From Bacteroidales bacterium (lineage in GTDB: Bacteria > Bacteroidota > Bacteroidia > Bacteroidales > JACABE01), in NCBI GenBank assembly GCA_038204725.1, contig JBBRCQ010000002.1, forward strand, positions 50,846 through 114,845: DNA of 64,000 nucleotides, read 5' to 3'. The position numbers and the translations under genes are program-made. This document shows, piece by piece, positions 2,487-63,430 of this stretch. Position 1 is the stretch's first letter, and each line of letters starts with the position of its first letter. The notes under the pieces are model-generated. The model was given only the letters and a program-made list of their open reading frames with translations. It did no database searches and was not told the origin of the DNA.

Positions 2487-2588
2487 ATAGTCAGTTTGTA
2501 AAGTTTATTAAATTTATAAAATGTTTTCAGAATGGTTATTAAAGAATTAAAGAATTAAGTTATTAACTAATAACTTAATAACCAATAA

Positions 2589-3851
2589 CTAAATTCCAAA
2601 TAACGACAATTGATTTTCATCAAAACGTTTCAACAATTTATGCTTTTCGTTTATAATGTTACTGCGGATCACAGAAGGTAAAATGTCTGTATGACCATCC
2701 GTGATTTGATTACAAGTGATAAAATATTTAGCCCGTTTTAACACAATTCCCATTTTCTTTAAATTGCTTTCGTTGAGACGTCCATATCGTCTTGAATGAA
2801 CAATTAGTTTAGCTGAACGCACACCTATTCCTGGAACTCTCAGTATCATTTCATAGTCCGCTTTGTTGATGTCAATGGGGAAAATGTGAGGATTGCGCAA
2901 TGCATAACTAAGTTTGGGATCCAGTTCAAGATCCAGTTGTTGAAACGCTTCATTTACGATTTCATCTACCTTGAATTCATAAAATCTCAATAACCAATCT
3001 GCCTGATAAAGCCTGTTTTCTCTTATCAAAGGTGGTTGTTTCAATGCAGGAAGTCGATTGTCAATCAATGTAACCGGTACATATCCAGAATAATATACTC
3101 TTTTCAACTTTTGATTATTGTAAAAGCCCGATGCCAATTGAAGTATCTGCAGGTCGCTTTCTGGAGTTGCTCCAATAATCAGTTGTGTGCTTTGACCGGC
3201 AGGAGCAAATACAGGTGAATTCCTGTATTTTTTTCGCTCCTCCTTGCTGATGATAATGTTTTCTTTGATCAAAGCCATGGGTTGATACACGCTTGCAAAA
3301 TCTTTATCGGGGGCTAACAGCTTAAGGTTTTGTTCTGTAGGAATTTCAATATTTACACTCATACGGTCGGCGTATAGGCCTGCTTGTTTAATCAATTCAG
3401 GATTAGCACCGGGTATGGCTTTCAGATGAATGTATGCATTGAAATGATAAACTTCTCTTAATTTCTTTGCTACATTCATCAATCTTTCCATCGTATAATC
3501 AGGGTTTCTCATCACACCTGAACTTAAAAACAAGCCTTCAATGTAGTTTCTCCGGTAAAAATTGATGGTTAATTCTGCAATTTCATCTACAGTAAATGCT
3601 GCTCTCGGAATATCATTGCTGCTGCGGTTCACACAATAGGCACAATCATAAATACAATGATTACTCAGCAAAACTTTTAACAACGAAATGCATCTTCCGT
3701 CTTCGGTAAAGCTATGACAAATGCCACAACTCACCGTATTGCCGATATTTTTCCCATTATTGCTTCTGTTACTTCCACTCGAAGAACAGGATACATCATA
3801 CTTAGCAGCATTGGAAAGAATATTCAGTTTAGTAAGGAGGGTGTCGTTCAT
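2589..3851 (-). CDS. Putative DNA modification/repair radical SAM protein (TIGR03916-like)
   Basis: 420 aa. Radical SAM CxxxCxxC cluster in SNHCIYDCAYCVN. C-terminal helix-hairpin-helix-like LRVPGIGVRSAKLIV. Confidence 0.8.
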   Translation of the reverse strand: MNDTLLTKLNILSNAAKYDVSCSSSGSNRSNNGKNIGNTVSCGICHSFTEDGRCISLLKVLLSNHCIYDCAYCVNRSSNDIPRAAFTVDEIAELTINFYRRNYIEGLFLSSGVMRNPDYTMERLMNVAKKLREVYHFNAYIHLKAIPGANPELIKQAGLYADRMSVNIEIPTEQNLKLLAPDKDFASVYQPMALIKENIIISKEERKKYRNSPVFAPAGQSTQLIIGATPESDLQILQLASGFYNNQKLKRVYYSGYVPVTLIDNRLPALKQPPLIRENRLYQADWLLRFYEFKVDEIVNEAFQQLDLELDPKLSYALRNPHIFPIDINKADYEMILRVPGIGVRSAKLIVHSRRYGRLNESNLKKMGIVLKRAKYFITCNQITDGHTDILPSVIRSNIINEKHKLLKRFDENQLSLFGI

Positions 3852-11762: not shown

Positions 11763-12834
11763 AATTTGTTTTTTAGCCGATGGGCAAAGTATTCATACAC
11801 AAAGGTGGTGCGATTATTTCAGCGGGCAAGGGCATGAAATACATCTGATAACTTTCCGTAAATCGGAAATCAAATCAGCAACTGTCCATTTTATTGATGT
11901 TGGAGGAATAAATGTTTCAGGAGGTAACTGGAAAACATTGTTGAGTGTTCCCAAAATCAAAAAAATATTGCAGCAAATTAAACCTGATATTTTACACGCC
12001 CATTATGCTACCAGCTATGGCATTGCCGGGGTTTTATGCAATTTTAAACCTTATATCATCACTACTTTAGGTTCTGATATTTTATTGAGCCCTCAAAATT
12101 CAATCATCATCCGGACTTTGTTGAAATTTGTCTTCAGAAAAGCTGTATGGATTACAGCTATGGCAGAACACATGAAAACTGTTATTATTGCTTTAGGAGC
12201 TGATGCATCCAAAGTATCGGTGGTTCCATTTGGAATTGATCCCATTGTTTTTAATGCAAATAACAGGCAATTGCCTGATGATAAATTTGTAATAACAAGC
12301 ACCAGAAATTTTGAGGATGTATATAACATTCCACATTTATTGAAAGCAGTATCTCTGATAAAAGATCAAATTCCCAATGTGAAGTTAAATTTGATCGGGG
12401 AGGGTTCGCAACGAAAAAAGATAGAACAAATGGTTATTGACCTAAATTTGAGCAATTGTACAACTTTTTACGGAAAAATCCCACAACCTCAGATTGCCGC
12501 ATTATTAAATCAATCCCATTTATTTATTAGTGTATCTTTGTCCGATGGAAACAACATTTCATTAAACGAAGCGATGGCATGTGGAACACTTTGTATTACA
12601 ACAGATATACCTGCTAATACTCAATGGATCACTGACAACGAAAATGGATTTTTAGTGAAAATTAACGATGTGAAAAGTTTAGCTGAAAAAATACTTCTTT
12701 CATACCATGATTATGATAAAATTCAGGCAATTGCTTCAGCAATAAACTTTGATATCATCGAAAAGCGAGCGATCTGGTCAAAAAATATGAAAATGGTTGA
12801 AGTTAAATATTTATCCATTTTACAAAAAACATAA
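11755..12834 (+). CDS. Glycosyltransferase family 4 (GT-B fold)
   Basis: 359 aa. The C-terminal half carries the typical GT4 signature (SLSDGNNISLNEAMACGTLCITTDIPANTQWI...GFLV). Confidence 0.75.
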   Translation: MLRICFLADGQSIHTQRWCDYFSGQGHEIHLITFRKSEIKSATVHFIDVGGINVSGGNWKTLLSVPKIKKILQQIKPDILHAHYATSYGIAGVLCNFKPYIITTLGSDILLSPQNSIIIRTLLKFVFRKAVWITAMAEHMKTVIIALGADASKVSVVPFGIDPIVFNANNRQLPDDKFVITSTRNFEDVYNIPHLLKAVSLIKDQIPNVKLNLIGEGSQRKKIEQMVIDLNLSNCTTFYGKIPQPQIAALLNQSHLFISVSLSDGNNISLNEAMACGTLCITTDIPANTQWITDNENGFLVKINDVKSLAEKILLSYHDYDKIQAIASAINFDIIEKRAIWSKNMKMVEVKYLSILQKT

Positions 12835-17562: not shown

Positions 17563-17590
17563 CACTTCGACTTTGCTTAGTGTTCAGTGA
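17563..17590. repeat. Single copy of the CACTTCGACT-N2-GCT-N-AGTG dispersed motif
   Basis: CACTTCGACTTTGCTTAGTGTTCAGTGA. Related to the 24-mer at 59323-59418 and to 63295-63315. Confidence 0.7.
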
Positions 17591-17597
17591 TTTTTTT

Positions 17598-17628
17598 GTC
17601 TTCTGTCTTCGGACTTTGGTCTTTCGAC
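17598..17628. repeat. Heptamer array GTCTTCT GTCTTCG GACTTTG GTCTTTC GAC
   Basis: Direct reading. Period 7, 4.4 units. Confidence 0.85.
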
Positions 17629-17702: not shown

Positions 17703-17710
17703 TACTTTTG
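17703..17710 (+). promoter_or_regulatory. Candidate -7 box TACTTTTG upstream of parE
   Basis: Matches TAnnTTTG, 16 nt upstream of the ATG at 17726. Confidence 0.4.
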
Positions 17711-22467: not shown

Positions 22468-22788
22468 GATATTTCCAGCTTTTCGGAAGGAGACATTCAT
22501 GTATATCCAAATCCTGTGCAGGATTAGCTGAATGTACAGTTCAAAGGTACTGTCACTGCAGATGGCTGCAGCTATCAATTGTATGATGGAGAAGGCAGGC
22601 TTTTTTCAAGTAATGGAAGTATGCAAATGCTCACAAAAGTAAATATGCAACCTGCTAAAAAAGGGGTTTACTATTTAGTAGTATTGGCTAAAGATGGGAA
22701 TGAGAATGTATTGGAAAGTGGTGATGCAGTAAATGGCCTATCCCCCTTGCCCCCTTTCCAAAAGAAAGGGGGTAAGAGTTCCTCCTGA
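22468..22788 (+). pseudogene. Relic T9SS C-terminal sorting domain with an in-frame TAG (22525-22527)
   Basis: Reads DISSFSEGDIHVYPNPVQD*LNVQFKGTVTADGCSYQLYDGEGRLF...KKGVYYLVVLAKDG. There is no N-terminal body upstream. Confidence 0.6.
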
Positions 22789-23031
22789 ATGGAATATAAT
22801 TTTTCCAAAGGAAATAGATAATAATAGTTGTTTTCTTAAACAATGGCCGTTTCGGTGCTTACATCTTTACCTGTATGATAGCAGGTAGAACTAAGCCTAT
22901 CCCCCTTGCACCTTTCCAAAAGAAAGGGGGTAAGAGTTCCTCCTGAATGGAATATAATTTTCCCAAAGGAAATAGATAAGGATAGTTGTTTTCTTAAACA
23001 ATAGCAGTTTCGGTGCTTACATCTTTACCGG
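22737..23031. repeat. Tandem direct duplication, 159-bp period (copy A 22737-22873, copy B 22896-23031)
   Basis: The copies are near-identical over about 137 nt. Each includes the hairpin CCCCCTTTC-CAAAA-GAAAGGGGG and the last 12 codons of the minus-strand gene 22994..23749. Confidence 0.9.
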
Positions 23032-23749
23032 TTTGCCGGCGTGTAGAGCGGGCTTTGAGCTGGGTTTTGTAATAAAGGATCAGATCATTCAATTCATTGG
23101 CCATGGTGGAATAATCAAGTTCTTCATATTCGTTAGCACAAAATTCGATGGCATCGAAAAAGGAAAAGACGGCTTTGTCGGTTATAATACGTATGCTGCG
23201 TGAATCAATTTTTTCTGTGGTTCCATTTTCACCGGTACGCTGTAAAAACAGTTTGTCAAATTCCGTATTAACGATAGAAAGCTGATCGAACCATAACTTT
23301 AGATTTAATCCTTCCACTGCAGTTTTTACCTCGGGTTTTGCATCATAATCCTTCAGGAAATCGGTTATACGTTTGGTTTCTGAATTGTAGTTGGCCGATG
23401 CTATATCACGGCCATGAATGTCGAGAAAATGATTTAATACTTTAACATGTGGAACAATGGAAGGCAGACTTAGTTTTTCCATCGTTTTAACCTGAGCTGA
23501 AATGGCATTAAACAATGTGTCGCGTTCATTGTCCAGTTCCAGCAATTGATTGCTGATGACATTGCTCATTTCATGTGCTTTTATTTTTTCCAGCACTGGA
23601 AGTTTAAGGGTGATACCCTGAAACGACTTTGTTAAATGCAATTCGGATGTGTCGTATTTCTTTACGATCCCGACAATCTGGTTCACAAACATTGTATATT
23701 CGCTGTTCCAGAGTGTGTTTATTGATAAACGAATAATTTTTATTTTCAT
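22994..23749 (-). CDS. Hypothetical all-alpha protein (Bacteroidota-restricted family, DUF6261-like by recollection)
   Basis: 251 aa with no catalytic motifs. The helical heptad-like sequence has conserved-looking LDNERDTLF and NYNSETKRI segments. Confidence 0.5.
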   Translation of the reverse strand: MKIKIIRLSINTLWNSEYTMFVNQIVGIVKKYDTSELHLTKSFQGITLKLPVLEKIKAHEMSNVISNQLLELDNERDTLFNAISAQVKTMEKLSLPSIVPHVKVLNHFLDIHGRDIASANYNSETKRITDFLKDYDAKPEVKTAVEGLNLKLWFDQLSIVNTEFDKLFLQRTGENGTTEKIDSRSIRIITDKAVFSFFDAIEFCANEYEELDYSTMANELNDLILYYKTQLKARSTRRQTGKDVSTETAIV

Positions 23750-23980: not shown

Positions 23981-24247
23981 ACAAACTGAATCTGTTTTGA
24001 GCTAAACACGTGATGGAAAAGTCAAACTGAATCCGTTTTGAGCTAAACACTTGATGGAAAAGTCAAACTGAAACTGTTTTGAGCTAAACACGTGATGGAA
24101 ATGTCAAACTGAATCTGTTTTGAGCTAAACACGTGATGGAAAAGTCAAACTGAATCTGTTTTGAGCTAAACACTTGATGGAAATGTCAAACTGAATCTGT
24201 TTTGAGCTAAACACGTGATAGAAAAGGCAAACTGAATCTGTTTTTTT
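23981..24247. repeat. 41-bp tandem repeat x6.5 (TCAAACTGAATCTGTTTTGAGCTAAACACGTGATGGAAAAG)
   Basis: Units start at 23981, 24022, 24063, 24104, 24145, 24186 and 24227 (partial). Variation is confined to a few positions. CACGTG is present in units 1, 3, 4 and 6; CACTTG in units 2 and 5. Confidence 0.95.
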
Positions 24248-24367
24248 AACAAAAGTGATAGTCTCACTCGCAGTGAGGCTATCACAGAGCTACTTAATTG
24301 CAGTGAAGCTGTCACTGAGAGAAATATTACTTTTAAGGATTTAAGAATGAAAATGCAAATCTATTTT

Positions 24368-24375
24368 TATCTTTG
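24368..24375 (+). promoter_or_regulatory. Candidate -7 box TATCTTTG for the TonB-dependent receptor
   Basis: Matches TAnnTTTG. It lies inside the track ORF's first 18 codons and 26 nt before the ATG at 24401. Confidence 0.4.
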
Positions 24376-24400
24376 CATCTTATTTATACAGGCTTTGTTT

Positions 24401-26815
24401 ATGAGGAAATTAATTCTACTGATTGCTGTTTCGTTGATTTCAGGAATGGGGATTACACAAACGATTACAATTATCGACAAATCAGATTTGCAGGCTATCG
24501 CCAATGTAACTGTAACCGGTAATAATTATTCGACTACGAGCGGAAAAAATGGCAAAGTGGATCTAAGCAATTTTATGCAGGATGAGCTTCTGACGTTTAA
24601 ACACCTGGCTTATCAAACCATTACTGCCACCAGGAAAGAACTTGTAAATGCCGGCAATAGATTGCTAATGACCGAACATATTATAAAATTGAAAGAAGTA
24701 GTATTTTCTGCCAATAAAATAGAAGAAAGTAAGGCAGATATTCCGCATCACATAGAAGTAATCAGCAGTAAACAGATTGCGTTTAACAATCCACAGACCA
24801 CTGGTGATTTACTGCAACAGACCGGCAGTGTATTTATACAGCAAAGTCAGATGGGTGGAAGCAGTCCTGTGCTGAGAGGCTTCGAAGCCAACAAGGTGTT
24901 GATGGTGATGGATGGCGTACGTATGAACAATGCCATATACCGGTCAGGACATCTGCAGAATGTAATTACCATCGATCCCAATATGCTGGATAGGGTAGAA
25001 GTGGTTTTCGGACCGGGATCGGTACTATATGGCAGTGATGCAATAGGAGGGGTGATGGCATTTTTTACAAGACAACCCATACTTTCGTATAATGATAAGA
25101 TGTATGTAACATCAGGGATTTCAAGCCGATATTCATCTTCAAACAATGAGATGGCAGGTACTATTAATGTAAACCTGGGTTTTAAAAAATGGGCATTTTT
25201 AACCGTTATTTCATACAAAAACCTGGGCGATTTGCGCATGGGTGCAAGTGGAAGAGATCTCAAATACGGAGATTGGGGTAAAAGTTTATTTTTTGCAGAA
25301 AGGATCAACGCAAAAGATTCAATGTTGACCAATAGCAATCCAACTATCCAGAAAAATTCCGGGTATTCGCAATATGATATCCTGCAAAAAGTATTGTTTC
25401 AACCCAATACTCATATAAAATATATACTGAATCTGCAATATTCCAATTCCGGTGATGTGCCCCGTTACGACAGACTGACTGAAATGGATGCCGGCAAATT
25501 AAAATATGCCGATTGGTATTACGGACCTCAAAGCCGTATTTTTGCATCTTTAAGAACAGAACTTAAAGCGATACATGGTTTTTATGATAATGCTGTCATT
25601 ACCGCGGCTTATCAGAATATCAGCGAAGACCGTGTTAACAGGAGGTTCAATAAAACTGCCGAAAGTCATCAGGAGGAAACAGTAAACGCTTTGTCGCTGA
25701 ATGTTGATTTTATGAAGAACATCACCCTTAAAAATGAGTTGCGGTTCGGTATAGAAGCTGTTTACAATGCTGTAGGATCTATTGCTTATAATATCAATGT
25801 AAACACTCAATTAAAAACTTTTGACAATGTAAGTCGTTATCCCGACGATGGAAGCATTTATACGACGCTGGCTGCATTTGCGACCCATAACTGGGAACTT
25901 GGCAAGCAATTGGTTTTTTCGCAGGGGATTCGCCTCAGCAGCATTTATATGCATTCTGCATATACCGATACCATGATGAAGCTTACCAAATTTCCCTTCG
26001 ATAAAAGGATTGAACAAAATAATGCAGCTCTCTCCGGCAACCTGGGTTTGGTATATATGCCCGGTCATGACTGGCGATTTGCTTTAATGGGCTCGTCTGG
26101 TTTTCGTGCTCCCAATGTGGATGATGTAACCAAGATAAATGATTCTAAAGCAGGCAGTGTGATTGTTATACCCAATCCTGGTCTGAAACCTGAATATGCC
26201 TTCAATGCAGATTTTACAATCGGAAAAACATTTAACAATAAGCTTCAGCTTGAAATGAACTGTTTTTATACTTTAATAAAAGATGCCATTGTAGTAATTG
26301 CTTCTGAATTTAACGGACAGGATTCAATTGTATGGGGTGGATTACAAACTGCGGTACAAACTTCTTCCAATGCAGGGGAAGCGCATGTATATGGTATGCA
26401 GGGTAATATTTTGTTGCAATTGACCGAAAAAGTTTCTTTTAGTAGTAATTTGACTTATACTTATGGAAGGTTGAAAACCGGCAATTTGCCAATGGATCAT
26501 ATTCCTCCTGTTTTTGGTATGACTTCTTTTAAATTTGAAACCAAAAAGTTTAAAGCAGAGTTCTATTCCCGCTATAACGGATGGAAAAGGATAAATGATT
26601 ACAGTAACAGTGGTGAAGATAATTTGCAGCAGGCAACGGTGGATGGAACGCCATCATGGTATACACTAAATATCCGTACTGCTTACCAATTGAACAAAGT
26701 TTTGAATATACAACTAGGGATGGAAAATATACAGGACAGCTATTATCGGAACTTTGCTTCCGGCATCAGTGCATCTGGCCGAAATGTGGTGGTGGCTGTG
26801 AAAGCTAGGTTTTAA
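24401..26815 (+). CDS. TonB-dependent receptor, probably haem/haemoglobin type
   Basis: The track ORF starts at 24347, but a signal peptide (MRKLILLIAVSLISG) begins at 24401. CarboxypepD_reg-like N-domain, plug domain (VLRGFEANKVLMVMDGVRMNN), FRAP-like box (SSGFRAPNVDD), NPNL-like box (IPNPGLKPE), terminal F. Confidence 0.8.
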   Translation: MRKLILLIAVSLISGMGITQTITIIDKSDLQAIANVTVTGNNYSTTSGKNGKVDLSNFMQDELLTFKHLAYQTITATRKELVNAGNRLLMTEHIIKLKEVVFSANKIEESKADIPHHIEVISSKQIAFNNPQTTGDLLQQTGSVFIQQSQMGGSSPVLRGFEANKVLMVMDGVRMNNAIYRSGHLQNVITIDPNMLDRVEVVFGPGSVLYGSDAIGGVMAFFTRQPILSYNDKMYVTSGISSRYSSSNNEMAGTINVNLGFKKWAFLTVISYKNLGDLRMGASGRDLKYGDWGKSLFFAERINAKDSMLTNSNPTIQKNSGYSQYDILQKVLFQPNTHIKYILNLQYSNSGDVPRYDRLTEMDAGKLKYADWYYGPQSRIFASLRTELKAIHGFYDNAVITAAYQNISEDRVNRRFNKTAESHQEETVNALSLNVDFMKNITLKNELRFGIEAVYNAVGSIAYNINVNTQLKTFDNVSRYPDDGSIYTTLAAFATHNWELGKQLVFSQGIRLSSIYMHSAYTDTMMKLTKFPFDKRIEQNNAALSGNLGLVYMPGHDWRFALMGSSGFRAPNVDDVTKINDSKAGSVIVIPNPGLKPEYAFNADFTIGKTFNNKLQLEMNCFYTLIKDAIVVIASEFNGQDSIVWGGLQTAVQTSSNAGEAHVYGMQGNILLQLTEKVSFSSNLTYTYGRLKTGNLPMDHIPPVFGMTSFKFETKKFKAEFYSRYNGWKRINDYSNSGEDNLQQATVDGTPSWYTLNIRTAYQLNKVLNIQLGMENIQDSYYRNFASGISASGRNVVVAVKARF

Positions 26816-26873
26816 ATTGATAATAGAATAATTATATTTTCGGTCTTCCGACTTAATATCCAATAACTTTGAA

Positions 26874-26903
26874 ACCCTGACAGGTTTCAAACCCTGTCAG
26901 GGT
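26874..26903. terminator. Bidirectional hairpin between convergent genes (ACCCTGACAGG-tttcaaac-CCTGTCAGGGT)
   Basis: An 11-bp perfect stem in the convergent gap between the receptor stop (26815) and the J-domain gene stop (26976). Confidence 0.6.
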
Positions 26904-26940
26904 TATGTTAATCATTCTCTGTACTTTTGATTATCTTTGG

Positions 26941-26964
26941 ACTTCCGACTTCCGACTTCCGACT
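26941..26964. repeat. Heptamer array ACTTCCG x3.4
   Basis: Direct reading. Lies 12 nt from the stop of the minus-strand gene 26976..27425. Confidence 0.9.
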
Positions 26965-30490: not shown

Positions 30491-30500
30491 AGTTGATGAT

Positions 30501-30569
30501 TGGTTATTTGTTAATTGTTAATTGTTAGTGGTAATTTGGGATTAGGTTAATAAGTCCGAAGTCCGAAGT
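30501..30569. repeat. Phased heptamers TGGTTAT TTGTTAA TTGTTAA TTGTTAG TGGTAAT ... (30501-30549), then GTCCGAA x2.3 (30554-30569)
   Basis: Direct reading. The array begins 10 nt upstream of the folD start and reads AACAATT/AACCAAT in the sense orientation. Confidence 0.85.
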
Positions 30570-30616
30570 AAAAAATACTTTTGTCATAAAAGAAGTAGAA
30601 GTACAGTCATTATTTA

Positions 30617-30646
30617 CTGATCACTGATCACTGTTCACTGATAACT
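30617..30646. repeat. Heptamer array CTGATCA CTGATCA CTGTTCA CTGATAA
   Basis: Direct reading. Lies 4 nt from the ffh stop and reads AGTGAAC/AGTGATC in the sense orientation. Confidence 0.9.
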
Positions 30647-30650
30647 CATT

Positions 30651-36263: not shown

Positions 36264-36338
36264 ATAAATTGAATTTTTCAGGCAAAAATAGGAAATTTTA
36301 TTGATATAGCGTTAAAGAGATTGAGTTTTTAGTGATTA

Positions 36339-36377
36339 GGTTAATGGGTTATTGGGTTACTGAGCTTTTTACTCAGT
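36339..36377. repeat. Mosaic modules A (GGTTAAT GGGTTAT TGGGTTA) and B (hairpin ACTGAG-N7-CTCAGT)
   Basis: Direct reading. The counterpart in inverted orientation is at 63387-63415. Confidence 0.85.
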
Positions 36378-36420
36378 CACGAGCTGCAATTTCTTACGAA
36401 GTAAGGTTTCTGAGTGAGAT

Positions 36421-36537
36421 CGACGCTAAGCGACAGCTCAGTCCCGAGCCACAATTTCTCGACGCTAAGCGACAGCTTAGTCCCGAGCCACAATTTCTCG
36501 ACGCTAAGCGACAGCTTAGTCCCGAGCTACAATTTCT
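36421..36537. repeat. Mosaic module C: 39-nt unit x3 head-to-tail (CGACGCTAAGCGACAGCTYAGTCCCGAGCYACAATTTCT)
   Basis: Units at 36421, 36460 and 36499, with a partial copy at 36378-36403. Each contains the hairpin CTAAGC-N4-GCTTAG. Confidence 0.95.
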
Positions 36538-36550
36538 TACGAAGTATGAG

Positions 36551-36636
36551 TTAGAAATTGTTATTCGGGAAGTTAGAAATTGTTATTCGGGAAGTTAGAA
36601 ATTGTTATTCGGGAAGTTAGAAATTGTTATTCGGGA
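36551..36636. repeat. Mosaic module D: 22-nt unit x4 (TTAGAAATTGTTATTCGGGAAG)
   Basis: Units at 36551, 36573, 36595 and 36617. They abut with no spacers. Confidence 0.95.
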
Positions 36637-36684
36637 TTGAGTTATTTTAGTCTATTAGGCTATTAATAACTGATAACTATTTAG

Positions 36685-36747
36685 CTGTTCACTATTCACT
36701 ATTCACTATTCACTTTTCACTTTTCGCTGTTCACTGTTCACTATTCG
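36685..36747. repeat. Mosaic module E: nine phased heptamers (CTGTTCA/CTATTCA/CTTTTCA...)
   Basis: Direct reading. The array ends 4 nt from the flippase stop codon at 36752 and reads AGTGAAY in the sense orientation. Confidence 0.95.
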
Positions 36748-36751
36748 CCTA

Positions 36752-40291: not shown

Positions 40292-40417
40292 TAAGTCGGA
40301 AGTCGGAAGTCGGAAGTCGGAAGTCCGAAGTCGGAAGTCGGAAGTCCGAAGATTGAAGATTGAAGATTGAAGATTGAAGATTGAAGATTGAAGATTGAAG
40401 ATTGAAGATTGAAGATT
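40292..40417. repeat. 18 phased heptamers: 8 x GAAGTC(G/C), then 10 x GAAGATT
   Basis: Direct reading. The GAAGATT copies start at 40348, 40355 ... 40411. Confidence 0.97.
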
Positions 40418-40459
40418 GAAAAAGACCAATTACCAATAATATAATAACTAAAATATAGA

Positions 40460-42468: not shown

Positions 42469-42741
42469 ATGAATTTCAATAGCATCTTGTTGAATGGCAA
42501 AAGTATCCGGTTGAATGTCAAAAGCATCCGTATGAGTAGCAAAAGCTTATTAACGAATTAAAAAACCAACCGGATGAATAGCAAAAGTATTCGGGTGAGT
42601 GATAAAACCATCCAGATGAATTGCAAAAGCATACTGACGAATGATAAAACCAACCGGACGAATTGCAAATGCATCTGAATAAATACCAAAAGCATTCCCG
42701 TGAATGGCAATACTGTTTCATTGAATTGCTGTAAAGGATTT
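42469..42741. repeat. Degenerate 21-nt tandem repeat, about 13 units (consensus RTGAATNGCAAAAGCATCCGG)
   Basis: Units were phased by eye from 42469. Stops occur in all frames. Confidence 0.8.
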
Positions 42742-53080: not shown

Positions 53081-53100
53081 GGGTGTTGGTTGTTGATAAA

Positions 53101-53156
53101 TGGTTAATGGTTAATGGTTATCAAGACGGAAGACTGAAGTCGGAAGACCGAAGACA
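53101..53156. repeat. Eight phased heptamers: TGGTTAA x2, TGGTTAT, then CAAGACG GAAGACT GAAGTCG GAAGACC GAAGACA
   Basis: Direct reading. Starts 20 nt upstream of the moaC start and reads TAACCAT x3 in the sense orientation. Confidence 0.95.
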
Positions 53157-53191: not shown

Positions 53192-53224
53192 TTCGAAATT
53201 CGTAATTTGTAATTCGTAATTTTT
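53192..53224. repeat. Heptamer array TTCGAAA TTCGTAA TTTGTAA TTCGTAA abutting the moaA stop codon
   Basis: Direct reading. Confidence 0.9.
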
Positions 53225-59286: not shown

Positions 59287-59288
59287 GA

Positions 59289-59320
59289 AAATTAAAAATT
59301 AAAAATTAAAAATTAAAAAG
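59289..59320. repeat. Heptamer array AAAATTA x4.5, starting 2 nt upstream of the holA start
   Basis: Direct reading. Confidence 0.9.
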
Positions 59321-59322
59321 TA

Positions 59323-59418
59323 GCACTTCGACTATGCTCAGTGACCGCACTTCGACTATGCTCAGTGACCGCACTTCGACTATGCTCAGTGACCGCACTT
59401 CGACTATGCTCAGTGGCC
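59323..59418. repeat. 24-nt tandem repeat x4 (GCACTTCGACTATGCTCAGTGACC)
   Basis: Units at 59323, 59347, 59371 and 59395 (the last has G for A). They abut with no spacers. Confidence 0.97.
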
Positions 59419-59459
59419 GGATATTTTGTCTTTGATCTTCCGTCTCAATAATCCGGCAA

Positions 59460-60248
59460 TTAATATTGATTGTTATAGTCAAAATATAAATGCTTGACAG
59501 TTTGTCCTTTATTGATTAATTGCTTTAATGAATCAATACCGATATCGAGATGCTCTGCTAAATATTTATCTGAAACTTTTTTATCAATTTCTTCTGTTTT
59601 TACACCTTCTGAAATCATAGGCTGGTCAGTAACCAATAATAATGCTCCTGAAGGGATGTGATTGTAAAAACCAACTATAAAAATTGTAGCAGTTTCCATA
59701 TCGATGGCCATCGCACGCATGGTCCGGAGATAGACTTTGAATTCCTCATCATGCTCCCATACTCTGCGATTGGTGGTATAGACGGTACCTGTCCAGTAAT
59801 CTCGGTTATAGTCTCTGATTGTTGTGGAAATAGCTTTTTGCAGGTTAAATGCCGGTAAAGCAGGTACTTCCTTGGGGAAATAATCTCTGGATGTTCCTTC
59901 GCCTCTGATAGCTGCAATGGGCAGAATTAAGTCGCCTAAATTGTTTTTCTTTTTTAAGCCTCCGCATTTTCCAAGGAATAATACAGCTTTTGGATGAATG
60001 GCACTTAATAAATCCATGATAGTGGCAGCATTAGCACTACCCATTCCAAAGTTAATGATGGTAATGTTATTTGCAGTAGAACTCTGCATTGCTTTTTCGT
60101 TACCCATGATAGGTACTTTAAATTTAGCCGAAAACAATTCAAGGTATTTTGAAAAATTGACTAAAATTATATATTTACCAAAATCTTTTAATGCTGTTCC
60201 TGTATAGCGTGGTAGCCAGTTTTCAACAATTTCTTCTTTTGTCTTCAT
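59460..60248 (-). CDS. amn: AMP nucleosidase (short Bacteroidota type)
   Basis: 262 aa starting MKTKEEIVENWLPRYTG, with a PNP_UDP_1-like core (GMGSANAATIMDLL, AIDMETATIF). Confidence 0.75.
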   Translation of the reverse strand: MKTKEEIVENWLPRYTGTALKDFGKYIILVNFSKYLELFSAKFKVPIMGNEKAMQSSTANNITIINFGMGSANAATIMDLLSAIHPKAVLFLGKCGGLKKKNNLGDLILPIAAIRGEGTSRDYFPKEVPALPAFNLQKAISTTIRDYNRDYWTGTVYTTNRRVWEHDEEFKVYLRTMRAMAIDMETATIFIVGFYNHIPSGALLLVTDQPMISEGVKTEEIDKKVSDKYLAEHLDIGIDSLKQLINKGQTVKHLYFDYNNQY

Positions 60249-60354
60249 ACCGAAATACTTTGTTTATAATAGAAAATAGAGTACAAATTTACATATTTTT
60301 TGATAGTCTTGAATTGTTCTTTATGAAAAACATAATGTATGTATGCATTATTAC

Positions 60355-61725
60355 TTAAAACAAATAGTTTAAATTAATGTAAAATGCTGAATTTCCGTCT
60401 TGTGGGTCGTAAGCCCTGCCATATGTGAAATTAATTATAAAATTTGAATTCAATACAAAATGCAAGCTACTTCCGTAACCAATGTGCAATTTTTCTTTAT
60501 TGTCATCAATGTTGTAATTTTGTGGGATATTTTTTTTGTTAAAGGTATAAGGTTGAATCACTTCGCCTAAGTCAGTAAAACCACTTAATGCAATGTAGAA
60601 ATTTTGGTTGAATAAACGGGTGCGTAAAAATTTCCACCGAAGTTCGAAATTGCTATAAAACATACCTTCTCCAACCAATCGATTGCGCAATACACCTCTT
60701 ATGGTTTTGGCTCCACCTAATCCGTCTTGTGTAGGTTTATTGGATGCAAATAAAAATGGCAACATGTAAAATGGCATTTCTCCTGCTATTTTGCCTTGAT
60801 AGGCTATCCTGCATGCCAGATTCAATACTTCCCTTTTCAGTGTAAAATACTGACGATGACTAATGGCAAATTGCGCATAGTTGTATTTATTTCCAATAAT
60901 GGAAGGAGACAGCAACAACAAGGCTTCCGACCAGATACCTCGCATTGGATTTGGCTCATTATCACGGGTATCGTAAACAAGACCTATTTTGATAATTTGA
61001 GTGGTTCCTCCGGTTTGCTGTTCTTTGGGAATGATTCCCCAATTTTTATATTTTTCAAATAAGCTTGTTGTCGTATCAACAGCAGGAAGAATTTTGTCAG
61101 CATCTTGACCTTTATTCAATTTATTAATATCAACGTTTCCAATATTGTTATCGTATAAACCATATCCCAATACCCATTGCAAGGCTTTATCCTTGCGTAA
61201 ACTAAGAAAATCAAAAGTTAAACGAAACAATTGCCGGTTGATGCGATAATACATACGTGATAAATATGATATATTGTTTGGGTCATCTACCTCGAAATTG
61301 TGATTATAAGTAGCCTGGTAACCGTTAAAACCATAAAAATCCAAGGCTTGTTCCTGGAAATAGCTTATGTCACCTGTAAAACGTATGCCTTTTATCAAAT
61401 ATTTAGAATCATAAGTAATCTGATTGATTCCGCTTCCTTTTGTTGTTCTTGTCCATTCCAGATAAATGGAATGACGATAACCGGGGTATAATGTGCCATT
61501 TCCGTAATCAAACAGGTTGAGAACAGCCCCATACTTAAACCCAATATCAGAATCAAAGGCTATGGCCGGGATTGCGGCAAAACTCCAGCCTTTAATTTGC
61601 TTTTCTTTAGTTAAGGTGGTTGCAGTTGTGTCCTTAGTTTGTTGACTGAAAACAAATAGAGGGAACAAAATACAAAACAAAACGATGTATAAATTTTTTT
61701 TCAAAATGTTATAGTGTTGAATCAA
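60355..61725 (-). CDS. Outer-membrane beta-barrel protein (Omp85/D15 surface-antigen-like)
   Basis: 456 aa. Signal peptide, alternating beta-strand pattern, and a C-terminal YINLNYLF with terminal aromatic residue. Confidence 0.55.
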   Translation of the reverse strand: MIQHYNILKKNLYIVLFCILFPLFVFSQQTKDTTATTLTKEKQIKGWSFAAIPAIAFDSDIGFKYGAVLNLFDYGNGTLYPGYRHSIYLEWTRTTKGSGINQITYDSKYLIKGIRFTGDISYFQEQALDFYGFNGYQATYNHNFEVDDPNNISYLSRMYYRINRQLFRLTFDFLSLRKDKALQWVLGYGLYDNNIGNVDINKLNKGQDADKILPAVDTTTSLFEKYKNWGIIPKEQQTGGTTQIIKIGLVYDTRDNEPNPMRGIWSEALLLLSPSIIGNKYNYAQFAISHRQYFTLKREVLNLACRIAYQGKIAGEMPFYMLPFLFASNKPTQDGLGGAKTIRGVLRNRLVGEGMFYSNFELRWKFLRTRLFNQNFYIALSGFTDLGEVIQPYTFNKKNIPQNYNIDDNKEKLHIGYGSSLHFVLNSNFIINFTYGRAYDPQDGNSAFYINLNYLF

Positions 61726-62497
61726 TATAGGTTAACAAAATAATTAAATCATTCTCATTCTTAGGAGAAATCTTTTTATCTTTAATAAATTTCTGTATTT
61801 CAGGATTATTGTTAAATGAATTTATAAACTTCTTTTTGTTTTTATTTACTAATTTAAGTTCATTATTGATAAATAAATAATAATTCTTTACTATCATTAA
61901 CTCATCATCTCTGCTTCCAACGTCCAGTGCTTCATTGTATTTGGCTTCTTTTACTTTAGCAGAATAGTTACACAGAAGAGATGTTTTTTTATTATAAACC
62001 ACTTTAGAAAAACCATTTAATATATAATCACCTAAAGCATTTCGTGTAATAAAAACTTCATTTTTTTCTTTTAATTTTAATAAACTTGTCAGATGAGCCG
62101 GTAATATTTTAATTTCAGCAACATCCTTAATTTCAATAACATTGTATAAAACATCAATTTTAACATACACATTTTGGATGACCCCTGAATCTTTAATAAT
62201 TTTTATATCAGCAAGTTGCCAATCGTCGTAAATATAACTTGAGCCTGTTATGGTTTTGTTGTAACTCTTTTCAGTAATATTATAAGTATCAAATCGGAGT
62301 GTCTGAGGAGTGTTGCCAGTTTCGGTATAAATTATCTGACTGATAGCAACTTTGGTAAGTAGAAAAAGACCAACCATAAAACTTCCAGTAATGCTTTTCT
62401 TTGAAAATAAAATCATTTTTTTATATATTTGAGAGATTAATGAAATCCTTTTTTTAGGTAAAGATACTAATTTATCGATTAATACCTTTAATTTCAC
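61709..62497 (-). CDS. Hypothetical secreted/membrane-anchored protein
   Basis: 262 aa in the track. A signal-like segment begins at Met28 (MILFSKKSITGSFMVGLFLLTKVAISQ), so a start at 62416 is plausible. Confidence 0.45.
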   Translation of the reverse strand: MKLKVLIDKLVSLPKKRISLISQIYKKMILFSKKSITGSFMVGLFLLTKVAISQIIYTETGNTPQTLRFDTYNITEKSYNKTITGSSYIYDDWQLADIKIIKDSGVIQNVYVKIDVLYNVIEIKDVAEIKILPAHLTSLLKLKEKNEVFITRNALGDYILNGFSKVVYNKKTSLLCNYSAKVKEAKYNEALDVGSRDDELMIVKNYYLFINNELKLVNKNKKKFINSFNNNPEIQKFIKDKKISPKNENDLIILLTYIDSTL

Positions 62498-62653
62498 AAT
62501 ATATGCTGTACCAAATTCAATACGTTTAATCAGATGAAAATATTCAATCCTGATAAATACTTATTTTTTTTGTAAAAATACAATTCCTTTTCATACTATT
62601 GACATTTGAATTAAGAAAAAGATTGTAGATTTGTAAAATTAAATTAATTATTT

Positions 62654-63100
62654 ATGATTCCGCTTAATTTCCCATCATTTCCATTTAAAATTAGAAAAAC
62701 ACAGAAAGGTGAAGAGATTTTTGATATAATCCGGAAGAAATATGTTGCATTTACTGAAGAGGAATGGGTAAGGCAGCATTGTATTGCCTATCTGATCAGT
62801 GAAAAAAAATATCCTGCATCACTTATGGCAGTAGAAAAAGGACTTAGCGTAAACGGACTTAAGAAAAGAACTGATATTGTTACTTTTACAAAGGATGGAA
62901 ACCCTAAACTGATTGTTGAATGTAAAGCTCCACATATTGAGATTACGAATGATACATTTGATCAGATTGCTCGTTACAACATGACGTTGAAAGTTAATTA
63001 TCTATTGGTTACCAATGGATTGCAACATTTTTGCTGTGTTATTGATCATCAGGAAGGCAGTTACAGATTTTTGGAAGAAGTGCCTGAGTATGGTCAGTGA
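62654..63100 (+). CDS. Stand-alone type I restriction enzyme HsdR N-terminal-domain-like (HSDR_N_2) protein
   Basis: 148 aa with LNFPSFPFKIRKTQKGEEIFDIIRKKYVAFTEEEWVRQH...RTDIVTF...LIVECKAP, a PD-(D/E)xK-like core. The family is common in Bacteroidota. Confidence 0.7.
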   Translation: MIPLNFPSFPFKIRKTQKGEEIFDIIRKKYVAFTEEEWVRQHCIAYLISEKKYPASLMAVEKGLSVNGLKKRTDIVTFTKDGNPKLIVECKAPHIEITNDTFDQIARYNMTLKVNYLLVTNGLQHFCCVIDHQEGSYRFLEEVPEYGQ

Positions 63101-63150
63101 AGAGTGAAGAGTGAAGAGTGAAGAGTGAATAGAGAATAGTGAATAGTGAA
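63094..63150. repeat. Heptamer array (AGAGTGA x4, ATAGAGA, ATAGTGA x2) that includes the TGA stop of the upstream gene
   Basis: Direct reading. The stop at 63098-63100 is in phase with the array. Confidence 0.95.
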
Positions 63151-63210
63151 TTTATTTATCCCGACGGGTACGAAGTTCCCGACGGGTTAAATAAGAAGTA
63201 ATCAATTATT

Positions 63211-63245
63211 AGTGAACAGTGAATAGTGAATAGTGAACAGTGAAT
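63211..63245. repeat. Heptamer array AGTGAAC AGTGAAT AGTGAAT AGTGAAC AGTGAAT
   Basis: Direct reading. It is the reverse complement of module E at 36685-36747. Confidence 0.95.
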
Positions 63246-63270
63246 AATAACTATTAACCATTAAATCAAT

Positions 63271-63415
63271 CCCGAATAACAATTTCTAACTCATGCTTCG
63301 ACTCCGCTCAGCAACAACTTCGTAAGAAATTGTAAATCGGGACTAAGCTATCGCTTAGCATACTTCGTAAGAAATTGTAGCTCGGGACTGAGCAAAAGCT
63401 CAGTAACCATTAACC
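63271..63415. repeat. Mosaic modules D (63271-63290), CTTCGACT motif (63295-63315), C x2 (63318-63393), B hairpin (63387-63404) and A (63405-63415), inverted relative to 36339-36636
   Basis: Direct comparison of the reverse complement with 36339-36640. Confidence 0.9.
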
Positions 63416-63430
63416 AAAAACAAAACAAAG

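Follow-up and report, generated by a model that had tools for sequence, protein, structure and literature searches.

Why should the spacers between co-directional genes of one bacterium be filled with tandem 7-nucleotide (nt) words, and why should the word and its strand depend on whether a stop or a start codon lies nearby? The question is raised by the ffh–folD spacer in a 64-kb stretch of DNA, 33% GC, from an uncultured Bacteroidota lineage (hereafter the window), whose nearest species representatives are two metagenome-assembled genomes (MAGs) with ffh 93% and 90% identical. In this spacer, all on the minus strand, a sense (AGTGAWC)x4.4 array at 30616..30646 begins 4–10 nt past the stop codon (30651) of ffh, which is assigned to SRP54 in Pfam, and represents the stop-side class with AGT in the sense strand. 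A sense (ACTTCGG)x2.6 array at 30552..30569, the C-rich orientation of the GAAGNCG family, lies mid-spacer, with the stop 81 nt and the folD start 61 nt away. The leader array TAACAAT TAACAAT TAACAAA TAACCAA (x3.6) occupies 30501..30535, with the folD ATG (30490) 12 nt beyond its end. Our answer, to which we give a probability of roughly 60%, is that such arrays are generated by slippage, dispersed in part as modules, turned over rapidly and passed through a strand-specific filter that probably acts at the level of the transcript, in many bacteria and in phages. We do not read their polarity as a punctuation code specific to Bacteroidota.

Arrays were called with Tandem Repeats Finder and with a separate autocorrelation scan of the window; genes were called as open reading frames (ATG starts, at least 60–80 amino acids). 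Period 7 prevails, with 13 runs covering 469 nt, compared with 3–9 runs for each of the periods 4–6 and 8–11. The intergenic DNA (11.1 kb) holds 12 period-7 arrays with a score of at least 10, whereas 200 dinucleotide-preserving shuffles of the intergenic pieces averaged 0.11 and never exceeded 2, and the same threshold applied to the 52.9 kb of coding DNA returned none. Each of the 12–13 arrays consists of 2.6–10.4 head-to-tail units, and the word families are scattered over the window, with AGTGAAN at four sites, GAAGNCG or its complement at five to six and TAACCAT/TAACAAT at three. An earlier note on this DNA had listed arrays that all lie within a few bases of where it placed them, beside genes whose names have Pfam support. 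Two of its heptamers, at 36335-36359 (TAACCCAW) and 2538-2558 (TTAATTCT), have period 8 instead, and an array of the GAAGTC family at 26940-26964 was missing from its list.

The lineage carries a bloom of heptamer arrays: 6–8 of 50 spacers in the window bear one (about 12–16%), compared with 25 of 1,096 same-strand spacers elsewhere in Bacteroidota (2.3%). An independent Logan short-read contig (L511, SRR19962012) is 100% identical to window positions 59386-63124; one of its ends lies inside a 24-mer repeat and the other inside an AGTGAAG array, and these termini within repeats indicate that the arrays are present in the reads. Heptamer arrays break short-read assemblies and inflate apparent 'conserved spacer motifs', and annotators should recognise them.

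Within the window alone, the dependence on position is no more than suggestive. Counted in the sense strand, stop-adjacent arrays have more G than C in six cases and more C than G in one, and start-adjacent arrays in one and three, respectively (p=0.09). We therefore turn to a census not chosen by word, which covers 160 Bacteroidota loci centred on ffh (2.4 Mb including the window) and contains 61 period-7 arrays, 58 of them intergenic. Where the nearest gene end is a stop codon, G exceeds C in that gene's sense strand in 30 arrays against 7; where it is a start codon, C exceeds G in 13 against 5. The association holds overall (Fisher p=2e-4) and without the window (0.002), as well as when arrays are collapsed per spacer (p=0.004; 0.014 without the window). 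AGT is found in 19 of 35 stop-side words where 7.2 are expected, with GAA, CAG and GTC also enriched, and AGT outnumbers ACT by 19 to 2 at stops, compared with 2 to 5 at starts (p=0.004). Per kb, divergent spacers also have only about one-sixth as many arrays as same-strand or convergent spacers. Outside the window, then, the census supports a polarity rule in which stop-side arrays are richer in G than C, often with AGT, and start-side arrays richer in C than G.

Background composition can be rejected as the cause of this polarity, since array-free same-strand spacers are almost unskewed (G–C skew of −0.02 after stops and −0.03 before starts). The proposal that word and orientation depend on the position of stops and starts finds statistical support beyond the stretch on which it was made, in the census and in the viral contigs described below. 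The further proposal that A/C-rich words stand directly before starts has counter-examples in (GAAGATT)x10, which ends 39 nt before an OmpA-like start, and (TAATTTT)x4.6 at holA.

The same polarity is seen for chosen words in IMG/VR contigs of 26–70% GC. Each scan sought three tandem copies of a word; counts refer to same-strand spacers after de-duplication, and expected values to arrays placed at random within their spacers. AGTGAAY was found in 80 viral stretches, giving 32 spacers with the sense and 14 with the antisense orientation. The sense arrays lie a median of 6 nt from the stop, 20 of them within 12 nt where 6.0 are expected, and the antisense arrays lie nearer the start (Fisher p=0.008). 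For GAAGTCN (103 stretches; 23 sense and 9 antisense spacers), the sense median is 12 nt from the stop, with 12 arrays within 12 nt against 3.9 expected (p=0.006). TAACTGA, in 107 stretches, reads TAACTGA in the mRNA of 14 spacers and TCAGTTA in that of 20. The TCAGTTA reading has its median 7 nt from the stop, with 13 of the 20 no more than 12 nt away (5.5 expected), and the TAACTGA reading lies nearer the start (p=0.0135). The opposite orientations of AGTGAAY, GAAGTCN and TCAGTTA show no excess within 12 nt of a stop. Two further words gave no significant bias: TAACMAT, in more than 120 stretches (43 sense, 17 antisense; p=0.25), and AGTTAGG, in 26 stretches (8 sense, 9 antisense), for which the trend is as predicted. 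TAACTGA has no G/C skew yet is polar, which means that skew is not the sole variable, and the orientation that contains AGT is a better description of the polarity than G/C skew.

Several processes that might impose such a polarity do not account for it. Replication-strand bias is rejected, because a single spacer holds opposite orientations 50 nt from each other, and the 64 kb have them on both strands. Arrays might supply stop codons in all frames, and AGTGAAY does so, but GAAGTCG and TCAGTTA are stop-free and still abut stops. Avoidance of Rho loading, through C-poor RNA after stops, is contradicted by TCAGTTA, which has YC yet occurs at stops, and by TAACTGA, which lacks YC and occurs near starts. 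Selection for unstructured RNA is unsupported: neither random nor letter-shuffled heptamers fold better than the array units (p=0.2 and 0.36), and three spacers of the window show no measurable reduction in structure relative to shuffles (z=+0.8, 0.0, −2.3). A split around intrinsic terminators, with AGT before and ACT after, shows no association either; a terminator-like hairpin is present in 18 of 137 spacers (p=0.6).

Transcription signals are sparse around the arrays. No intrinsic terminator was found in the ffh–folD spacer, and the Bacteroidota −7 box TANNTTTG shows no overall enrichment (118 against 109 expected). A sense-orientation box is missing from five of the seven array-bearing same-strand spacers. 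The boxes that are present lie before Wzz (TATTTTTG at 36283-36290, downstream of the period-8 array 36335-36359) and before parE (TACTTTTG at 17703-17710, downstream of the array 17598..17628). Since most array-bearing same-strand spacers have neither a recognisable terminator nor a −7 box, the arrays are probably transcribed, as intercistronic, trailing or leader RNA.

Comparison with relatives shows how labile the arrays are. The ffh–folD spacer measures 160 nt in the window, ~66 nt in the MAG with ffh 93% identical (L005) and ~37 nt in that with ffh 90% identical (L001); both keep the gene order and have no array in the spacer. In L005, the place of the window's TAACAAT x3.6 is taken by an A/C-rich leader without expansion, caccattaaccaattacaaataaacaacc. 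A syntenic metagenome contig (L512), whose OmpA-like protein is 81% identical, covers the flippase–Wzz, queE–OmpA and moaA–moaC spacers and has none of the window arrays in them. Its own short repeats there are unrelated to them: ATAACTGA x3.5, which precedes the OmpA-like start and has period 8, CAAATCAY x3 and a duplication of 14 nt. The 40 nt around the Wzz promoter-like box are conserved between the two. In its queE–OmpA spacer (L512 9931-10000), TAACTGAA TAATTGAA TAACTGAA TAACTGAA lies in sense orientation 13–20 nt before the start; its word is the TAACTGA known from Beggiatoaceae and cyanobacteria, here at a period of 8. A metagenome scan for closer relatives returned none above 78%. Four orthologous spacers across L005, L001 and L512 thus lack the window arrays, and for this reason the arrays appear dispensable for the flanking genes; at the window locus we see no evidence for an array function on which those genes depend. 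Of the three roles that the earlier note had put forward, namely operon punctuation, leaders for Shine-Dalgarno-independent initiation and selfish slippage-prone DNA, the last fits best. It had also held that absence from close relatives with no change in expression would speak against its proposal, and the absence is what these four spacers display.

Gain is also recurrent. The spacer 3′ of ffh is a hot spot, with a period-7 array in 12 of 158 Bacteroidota loci compared with ~2.3% of spacers generally. The word is different in each of the 12 and the polarity is obeyed in each, and the differing words imply that the gains were recurrent and independent. Copy number varies as well: viral contigs with 98.9% identical flanks have four and five array copies. 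In-phase changes of word are clearest between queE and the OmpA-like gene, where 17 successive GAAG fall on one residue modulo 7 over 40299-40411 and GAAGTCG passes into GAAGATT without a break of phase. The claim that phase is kept across changes of word therefore stands for contiguous arrays; in the sole testable separated pair, AGTGAA at 63096 and 63211, the residues are 5 and 1 modulo 7, out of phase. From the one copy-number difference and the in-phase transitions, we infer an origin by slippage.

Growth in place is only part of the story. The spacers 36264-36751 (minus strand) and 63101-63430 (plus strand) contain the same ordered modules, both in sense orientation: an AGTGAAY array, a 22-mer, one or more ~39-nt units, the hairpin CTGAGC-AAAA-GCTCAG, TAACC words and the start codon. 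In the flippase–Wzz spacer (minus strand), a sense (AGTGAAY)x10 array at 36676..36746 begins 5–9 nt past the polysaccharide flippase stop (36752), and the words TAACCCAA TAACCCAT TAACCTAA (period 8, TAACCCAW) occupy 36335..36359, ~75–100 nt upstream of the Wzz start. Between the two lies a structured composite core at 36367..36644, with a second copy at 63262-63403 on the plus strand. There, (AGTGAAG/AGTGAAT)x7.9 at 63096..63150 begins with a unit whose TGA is the stop codon (63098-63100) of the HSDR_N gene. It is followed, out of phase, by (AGTGAAY)x4.9 at 63211..63244, then by the core copy and by TAACCATTAACC at 63402-63415, 16 nt before the nucleotidyltransferase ATG.

The core is spelled TCCCGAATAACAATTTCTAACT ... 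GAAATTGTAGCTCGGGACT. The 22-mer TCCCGAATAACAATTTCTAACT is present four times in 36367-36644 and once in 63262-63403, and the ~39-nt units GAAATTGTRGCTCGGGACTAAGC-tgtc-GCTTAGCGTCGA (GAAATTGTRGCTCGGGACTAAGC...GCTTAG) three to four times and twice. The 22-mers pair with the ~39-nt units in nested hairpins, and the numbers of 5′ and 3′ arms vary in step. Shared blocks of the two copies are 93–100% identical, and both fold far better than shuffles (z=−7.6 for 36367-36644, −6.0 for 63262-63403). Searching the whole window on both strands against Rfam 15 at the gathering score returned no matches, composite core included. The core could be a MITE-like element (miniature inverted-repeat transposable element) or an unknown structured RNA.

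Smaller pieces are shared too. The junction words AGTTATCAGT and ATTAACCTAA are common to the ffh–folD spacer and one core-bearing spacer, and junction 10-mers and one 16-mer recur in several spacers in sense orientation; the 16-mer, TTCGGTCTTCCGACTT, is common to the array 53123..53155 and to 26841-26858. Because the same words and junctions recur in the same orientation relative to genes, the arrays must also have spread between loci as modules. Part of the order in the window genome is thus the copying of directional modules and not only growth in place.

We propose that slipped-strand mispairing would multiply AT-rich 7-nt words, head to tail, in the untranslated DNA beside gene ends, and that mutation of a unit followed by renewed slippage would give the in-phase transitions between words. 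Arrays would also be dispersed between loci as modules, either by recombination or inside a composite repeat. Those that abut a stop codon (typically at 0–12 nt) present as sense strand the one with G over C, usually with AGT, under a rule independent of phylum; those nearer the next start present the complementary strand, with C over G and ACT-type or TAAC-type words. A strand-specific filter, most likely on the transcript, would decide which orientation can be tolerated, or is of slight use, at either end of the spacer.

Several points weigh against this proposal. Start distances are approximate, as gene calls are based on open reading frames; arrays of related genomes are not wholly independent despite de-duplication; and copy-number polymorphism was seen in one case only. 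Stop-codon supply, Rho avoidance and unstructured RNA are each contradicted or unsupported as the reason for AGT at stops. Word usage is also uneven: the 80 viral stretches with AGTGAAY x3 compare with 15 and 6 when the letters of the word are scrambled. Such 5- to 13-fold differences are unlike neutral slippage of random seeds, and with the enrichment of AGT, GAA, CAG and GTC in stop-side words they point to a sequence-specific factor or process.

In the main alternative, which we consider unlikely, the arrays would be functional platforms that act in cis as RNA or single-stranded DNA. A protein with an OB fold (oligonucleotide/oligosaccharide-binding fold), such as a cold-shock-domain protein or S1, would cover one 7-nt unit per footprint, and AGT words on the stop side and ACT, TAAC or GTCTTC words on the start side would recruit different factors, with effects on stability, antitermination or Shine-Dalgarno-free initiation. 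The period equals the length of the heptanucleotide site of Bacillus subtilis CspB, whose consensus is 5′-GTCTTTG/T-3′, in which position 3 is C and positions 2, 4 and 6 are T (PMC1904285). The mid-spacer sense words GTCTTCT, GTCTTCG, GACTTTG and GTCTTTC match five to six of the seven positions, a resemblance of sequence only; word usage is non-random and orientation-specific across phyla; and MacGregor proposed the same candidate proteins, cold-shock-domain and S1, for TAACTGA (PMC4679880). Yet orthologous spacers of relatives do without arrays, only ~2% of Bacteroidota spacers have an array at all, the words in use are unrelated and number in the dozens, and most other words of the window, including most start-side words, are unlike the Csp consensus. 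Rehm et al. saw no link between their repeats and regulation (PMC4692102). Rather unlikely, in our judgement, is a single strand-specific grammar for heptamer arrays across bacteria and phages, with AGT words (often CAGT or AGTC) 0–12 nt past the stop and their complements or TAAC words in the next leader, regardless of skew or of G-quadruplex (G4) potential. If it were true, a conserved reader or generator with a 7-nt step would be implied; the candidates would be an OB-fold protein of the cold-shock-domain or S1 type that coats untranslated RNA, and a process coupled to the termination of translation, and the Bacteroidota window would be one especially rich instance.

The order of words in this genome could also be, in the main, that of a directional composite mobile element, similar to a MITE or a bacterial interspersed mosaic element (BIME), made of an AGTGAAY array, a hairpin core and a TAACC tail, inserted between genes in a single orientation and later decaying. 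The two core-bearing spacers with their near-identical, strongly folding blocks, and the junction words that the ffh–folD spacer has in common with one of them, speak for it. We nevertheless judge it quite improbable, as only two full copies are visible, the queE–OmpA and moaA–moaC array spacers have no core, no transposase, target duplication or unit-bounding terminal inverted repeats were seen, and the element was not found in ~600 other loci. Many genomes and phage contigs show this polarity independently and in unrelated words, which one element cannot explain. Contingency repeats that switch their neighbours by copy number (phase variation) would be expected to be slippage-prone, as these arrays are, and some arrays do flank the surface-polysaccharide genes flippase, Wzz and Wzy. 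Most, however, follow stops or lie between housekeeping genes (ffh–folD, moaA–moaC, amn–holA) and not in 5′ coding regions or between promoter elements, none is in coding DNA, and divergent spacers, which are mostly promoter DNA, are depleted; we regard this explanation as very improbable. Finally, we give almost no credence to G4 or other non-B structures in DNA or RNA that modulate transcription, as proposed for GGGAATC and GGGGAYT. No window word has a run of three or more G, which makes G4 impossible, the spacers fold no better than shuffles (z values above), and TCAGTTA/TAACTGA obeys the rule without G/C skew. The orientation rule of G4-forming heptamers thus also covers AT-rich words unable to form G4, a word without G/C skew and phage contigs of 26–70% GC. 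Its presence in non-G4 words removes G4 formation as a general explanation, and the search narrows to a strand-specific process with a 7-nt step, probably at the transcript level or tied to translation termination.

How do the arrays relate to known repeats? Heptamers of the STRR (short tandemly repeated repetitive) type have been on record in cyanobacteria since 1990, and ever since then the heptamer repeats of some bacterial genomes have gone unexplained. In that year, Mazel et al. reportedly described the STRR words CCCCAGT, TTGGTCA and CAACAGT in heterocystous cyanobacteria. The comparison with STRR made in the earlier note is apt. The window arrays are likewise tandem, 7 nt in period, intergenic and drawn from few word families over many loci, and the window word GAACAGT (= AGTGAAC) is one base from STRR3 CAACAGT, with the CAGT core in common. 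They differ in phylum and in their AT-rich words, and none of the three canonical STRR words occurs as an array in the window. To our knowledge, a rule of orientation or position is not part of the STRR definition. The repetitive extragenic palindromic (REP) and BIME sequences of enterobacteria are dispersed and modular and follow stop codons in same-strand and convergent spacers, often within ~15 nt of the stop; REPs are imperfect palindromes mobilised by RAYT (REP-associated tyrosine transposase) enzymes. The composite core is a structured module of that general sort. The heptamer arrays, unlike REPs, repeat directly and in tandem and have no dyad symmetry, and we saw no RAYT gene in the window.

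The closest precedents lie elsewhere, and in kind both heptamer repeats in Bacteroidota and such a strand and position bias are already known. The earlier note knew of no Bacteroidota equivalent, but TAACTGA repeats have been described in five Bacteroidetes, together with 'other heptamer direct repeats' in the same spacers (MacGregor 2015, PMC4679880). They run forward before start codons, with one set reversed right after a stop in Flexibacter litoralis, and are missing from close relatives; TAACTGA repeats occur also in Beggiatoaceae and cyanobacteria (PMC4679880). The window leader words TAACCAT and TAACAAT likewise contain TAAC, the ffh array ends ...ACTGATAACT on the plus strand, and the window words follow an analogous rule, forward before starts and reversed after stops; the TAACTGA rule itself is reproduced and extended in our viral contigs. 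Unlike those genomes, the window holds TAACTGA in no array; its words belong to at least five other families, among which stop-side arrays form a major class.

Nor is the positional ordering new, as the note had supposed, since Rehm et al. report the same polarity for Xanthomonas GGGAATC and Nostoc GGGGA(C/T)T (Rehm 2015, PMC4692102). There the G-rich strand is coding within 0–50 nt of a stop and non-coding within 0–50 nt of a start; the repeats often overlap the stop, are fewer between divergent genes and vary in length and sequence between relatives, and no function was found (PMC4692102). Window-type arrays have the identical strand and position bias and the same depletion from divergent spacers. 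They differ in that the repeats of Rehm et al. form G-quadruplexes and prefer four units, whereas no window unit has a G-tract of three or more (the maximum is two consecutive G) and none can form G4. The Xanthomonas repeats are also mostly retained between the same genes in two species, whereas the window arrays are absent from relatives. Heptanucleotides are, moreover, the commonest class of long simple sequence repeats in prokaryotes, with polymerase slippage over a footprint of ~7 nt as the proposed cause (Mrazek et al. 2007, as summarised in PMC4679880). Like these, the window arrays are non-coding, phylogenetically sporadic and over-represented at period 7 among units of 5–11 nt; a word-specific orientation at stops and starts is not described in summaries of that survey. 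What seems, in the literature searched, to go beyond MacGregor 2015 and Rehm 2015 is that AT-rich, non-G4 words and phage contigs obey the rule, and that stop-side words have an AGT core in common.

The remaining arrays of the window are distributed as follows. On the plus strand, (AAGTCGG/AAGTCCG)x8.4 at 40293..40351 begins 11 nt past the stop of a radical-SAM (queE-like) gene and is adjoined in phase by (GAAGATT)x10.4 at 40348..40420, a G-rich start-side exception that ends 39 nt before the OmpA-like start. The moaA–moaC spacer, on the minus strand, contains three sense arrays: (AATTACG/AATTACA)x4.3 at 53192..53221, 3 nt past the moaA stop (53225); (GTCTTCN/GACTTCA)x4.7 at 53123..53155, in the middle; and (TAACCAT)x3.1 at 53099..53120, 18 nt before the moaC ATG (53080). 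Also on the minus strand, sense (TAATTTT)x4.6 at 59288..59319 abuts the holA ATG (59286) and is T-rich rather than A/C-rich. Upstream of parE on the plus strand, GTCTTCT GTCTTCG GACTTTG GTCTTTC occupies 17598..17628 in sense orientation, after a hairpin with a T-run (17566-17597). Mixed words of periods 7 and 8 (TTATTGG, TTATTAAG and related) fill 2534..2604 (minus strand) after the stop of a radical-SAM gene; this region goes on with TTAATTCT x2.6 (period 8, 2538-2558) and TAACCATT, upstream of the DUF4130 gene. In a convergent spacer, (GGAAGTC)x3.6 at 26940..26964 (minus strand), in the sense of the DnaJ/KTSC gene, begins 11 nt past its stop (26976). Likewise in the middle of a convergent spacer, 26870-26903 is a near-perfect palindrome, GAAACCCTGACAGG-TTTCAAA-CCCTGTCAGGGTT, with a member of the GAAGTC/GACTTC family on either side; it is a candidate bidirectional terminator.

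Paired complementary arrays, considered as hairpin arms that might explain the polarity, occur in some loci (L180, L328 and L114); they are absent from the window and not general. There the stop-side and start-side arrays are near reverse complements: AATTAGG x4 with CCTAACT x5 at L180 6209-6296, and, in L328 and L114, GGAAGTCGG with CCGATTTCC and AGTGAAT with ATTCACA. Pairing of the two could give an imperfect hairpin as long as the spacer.

Longer repeats accompany the heptamers. A 24-nt tandem repeat, GCACTTCGACTATGCTCAGTGACC x4, occupies 59323-59419; the related 24-mer ATACTTCGACCAGGCTCAGTAACC, in seven copies, stands directly after a stop codon in a Flavobacteriales MAG (L032 5155-5325), and single related copies lie at window positions 17566-17586 and 63296-63316. 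The family, with the 24-mer ACTTCGACNNGGCTCAGTRACC, looks widespread in Bacteroidota. At 23982-24244, a 41-nt unit, CAAACTGAATCTGTTTTGAGCTAAACACGTGATGGAAAAGT, is repeated 6.4 times with 93% identity, ~100 nt upstream of a TonB-dependent receptor gene (24347-26815), and at 22736-23032 a 158-nt unit (x1.9, 94% identity) overlaps the 3′ end of a DUF6261 gene (22994-23749, minus strand). A degenerate region with periods of 21, 42 and 84 nt follows directly on the OmpA-like gene, at 42469-42710, and the open reading frames through it are unlike real proteins. L512 has a 42-nt periodic region in the same place (~12190-12400).

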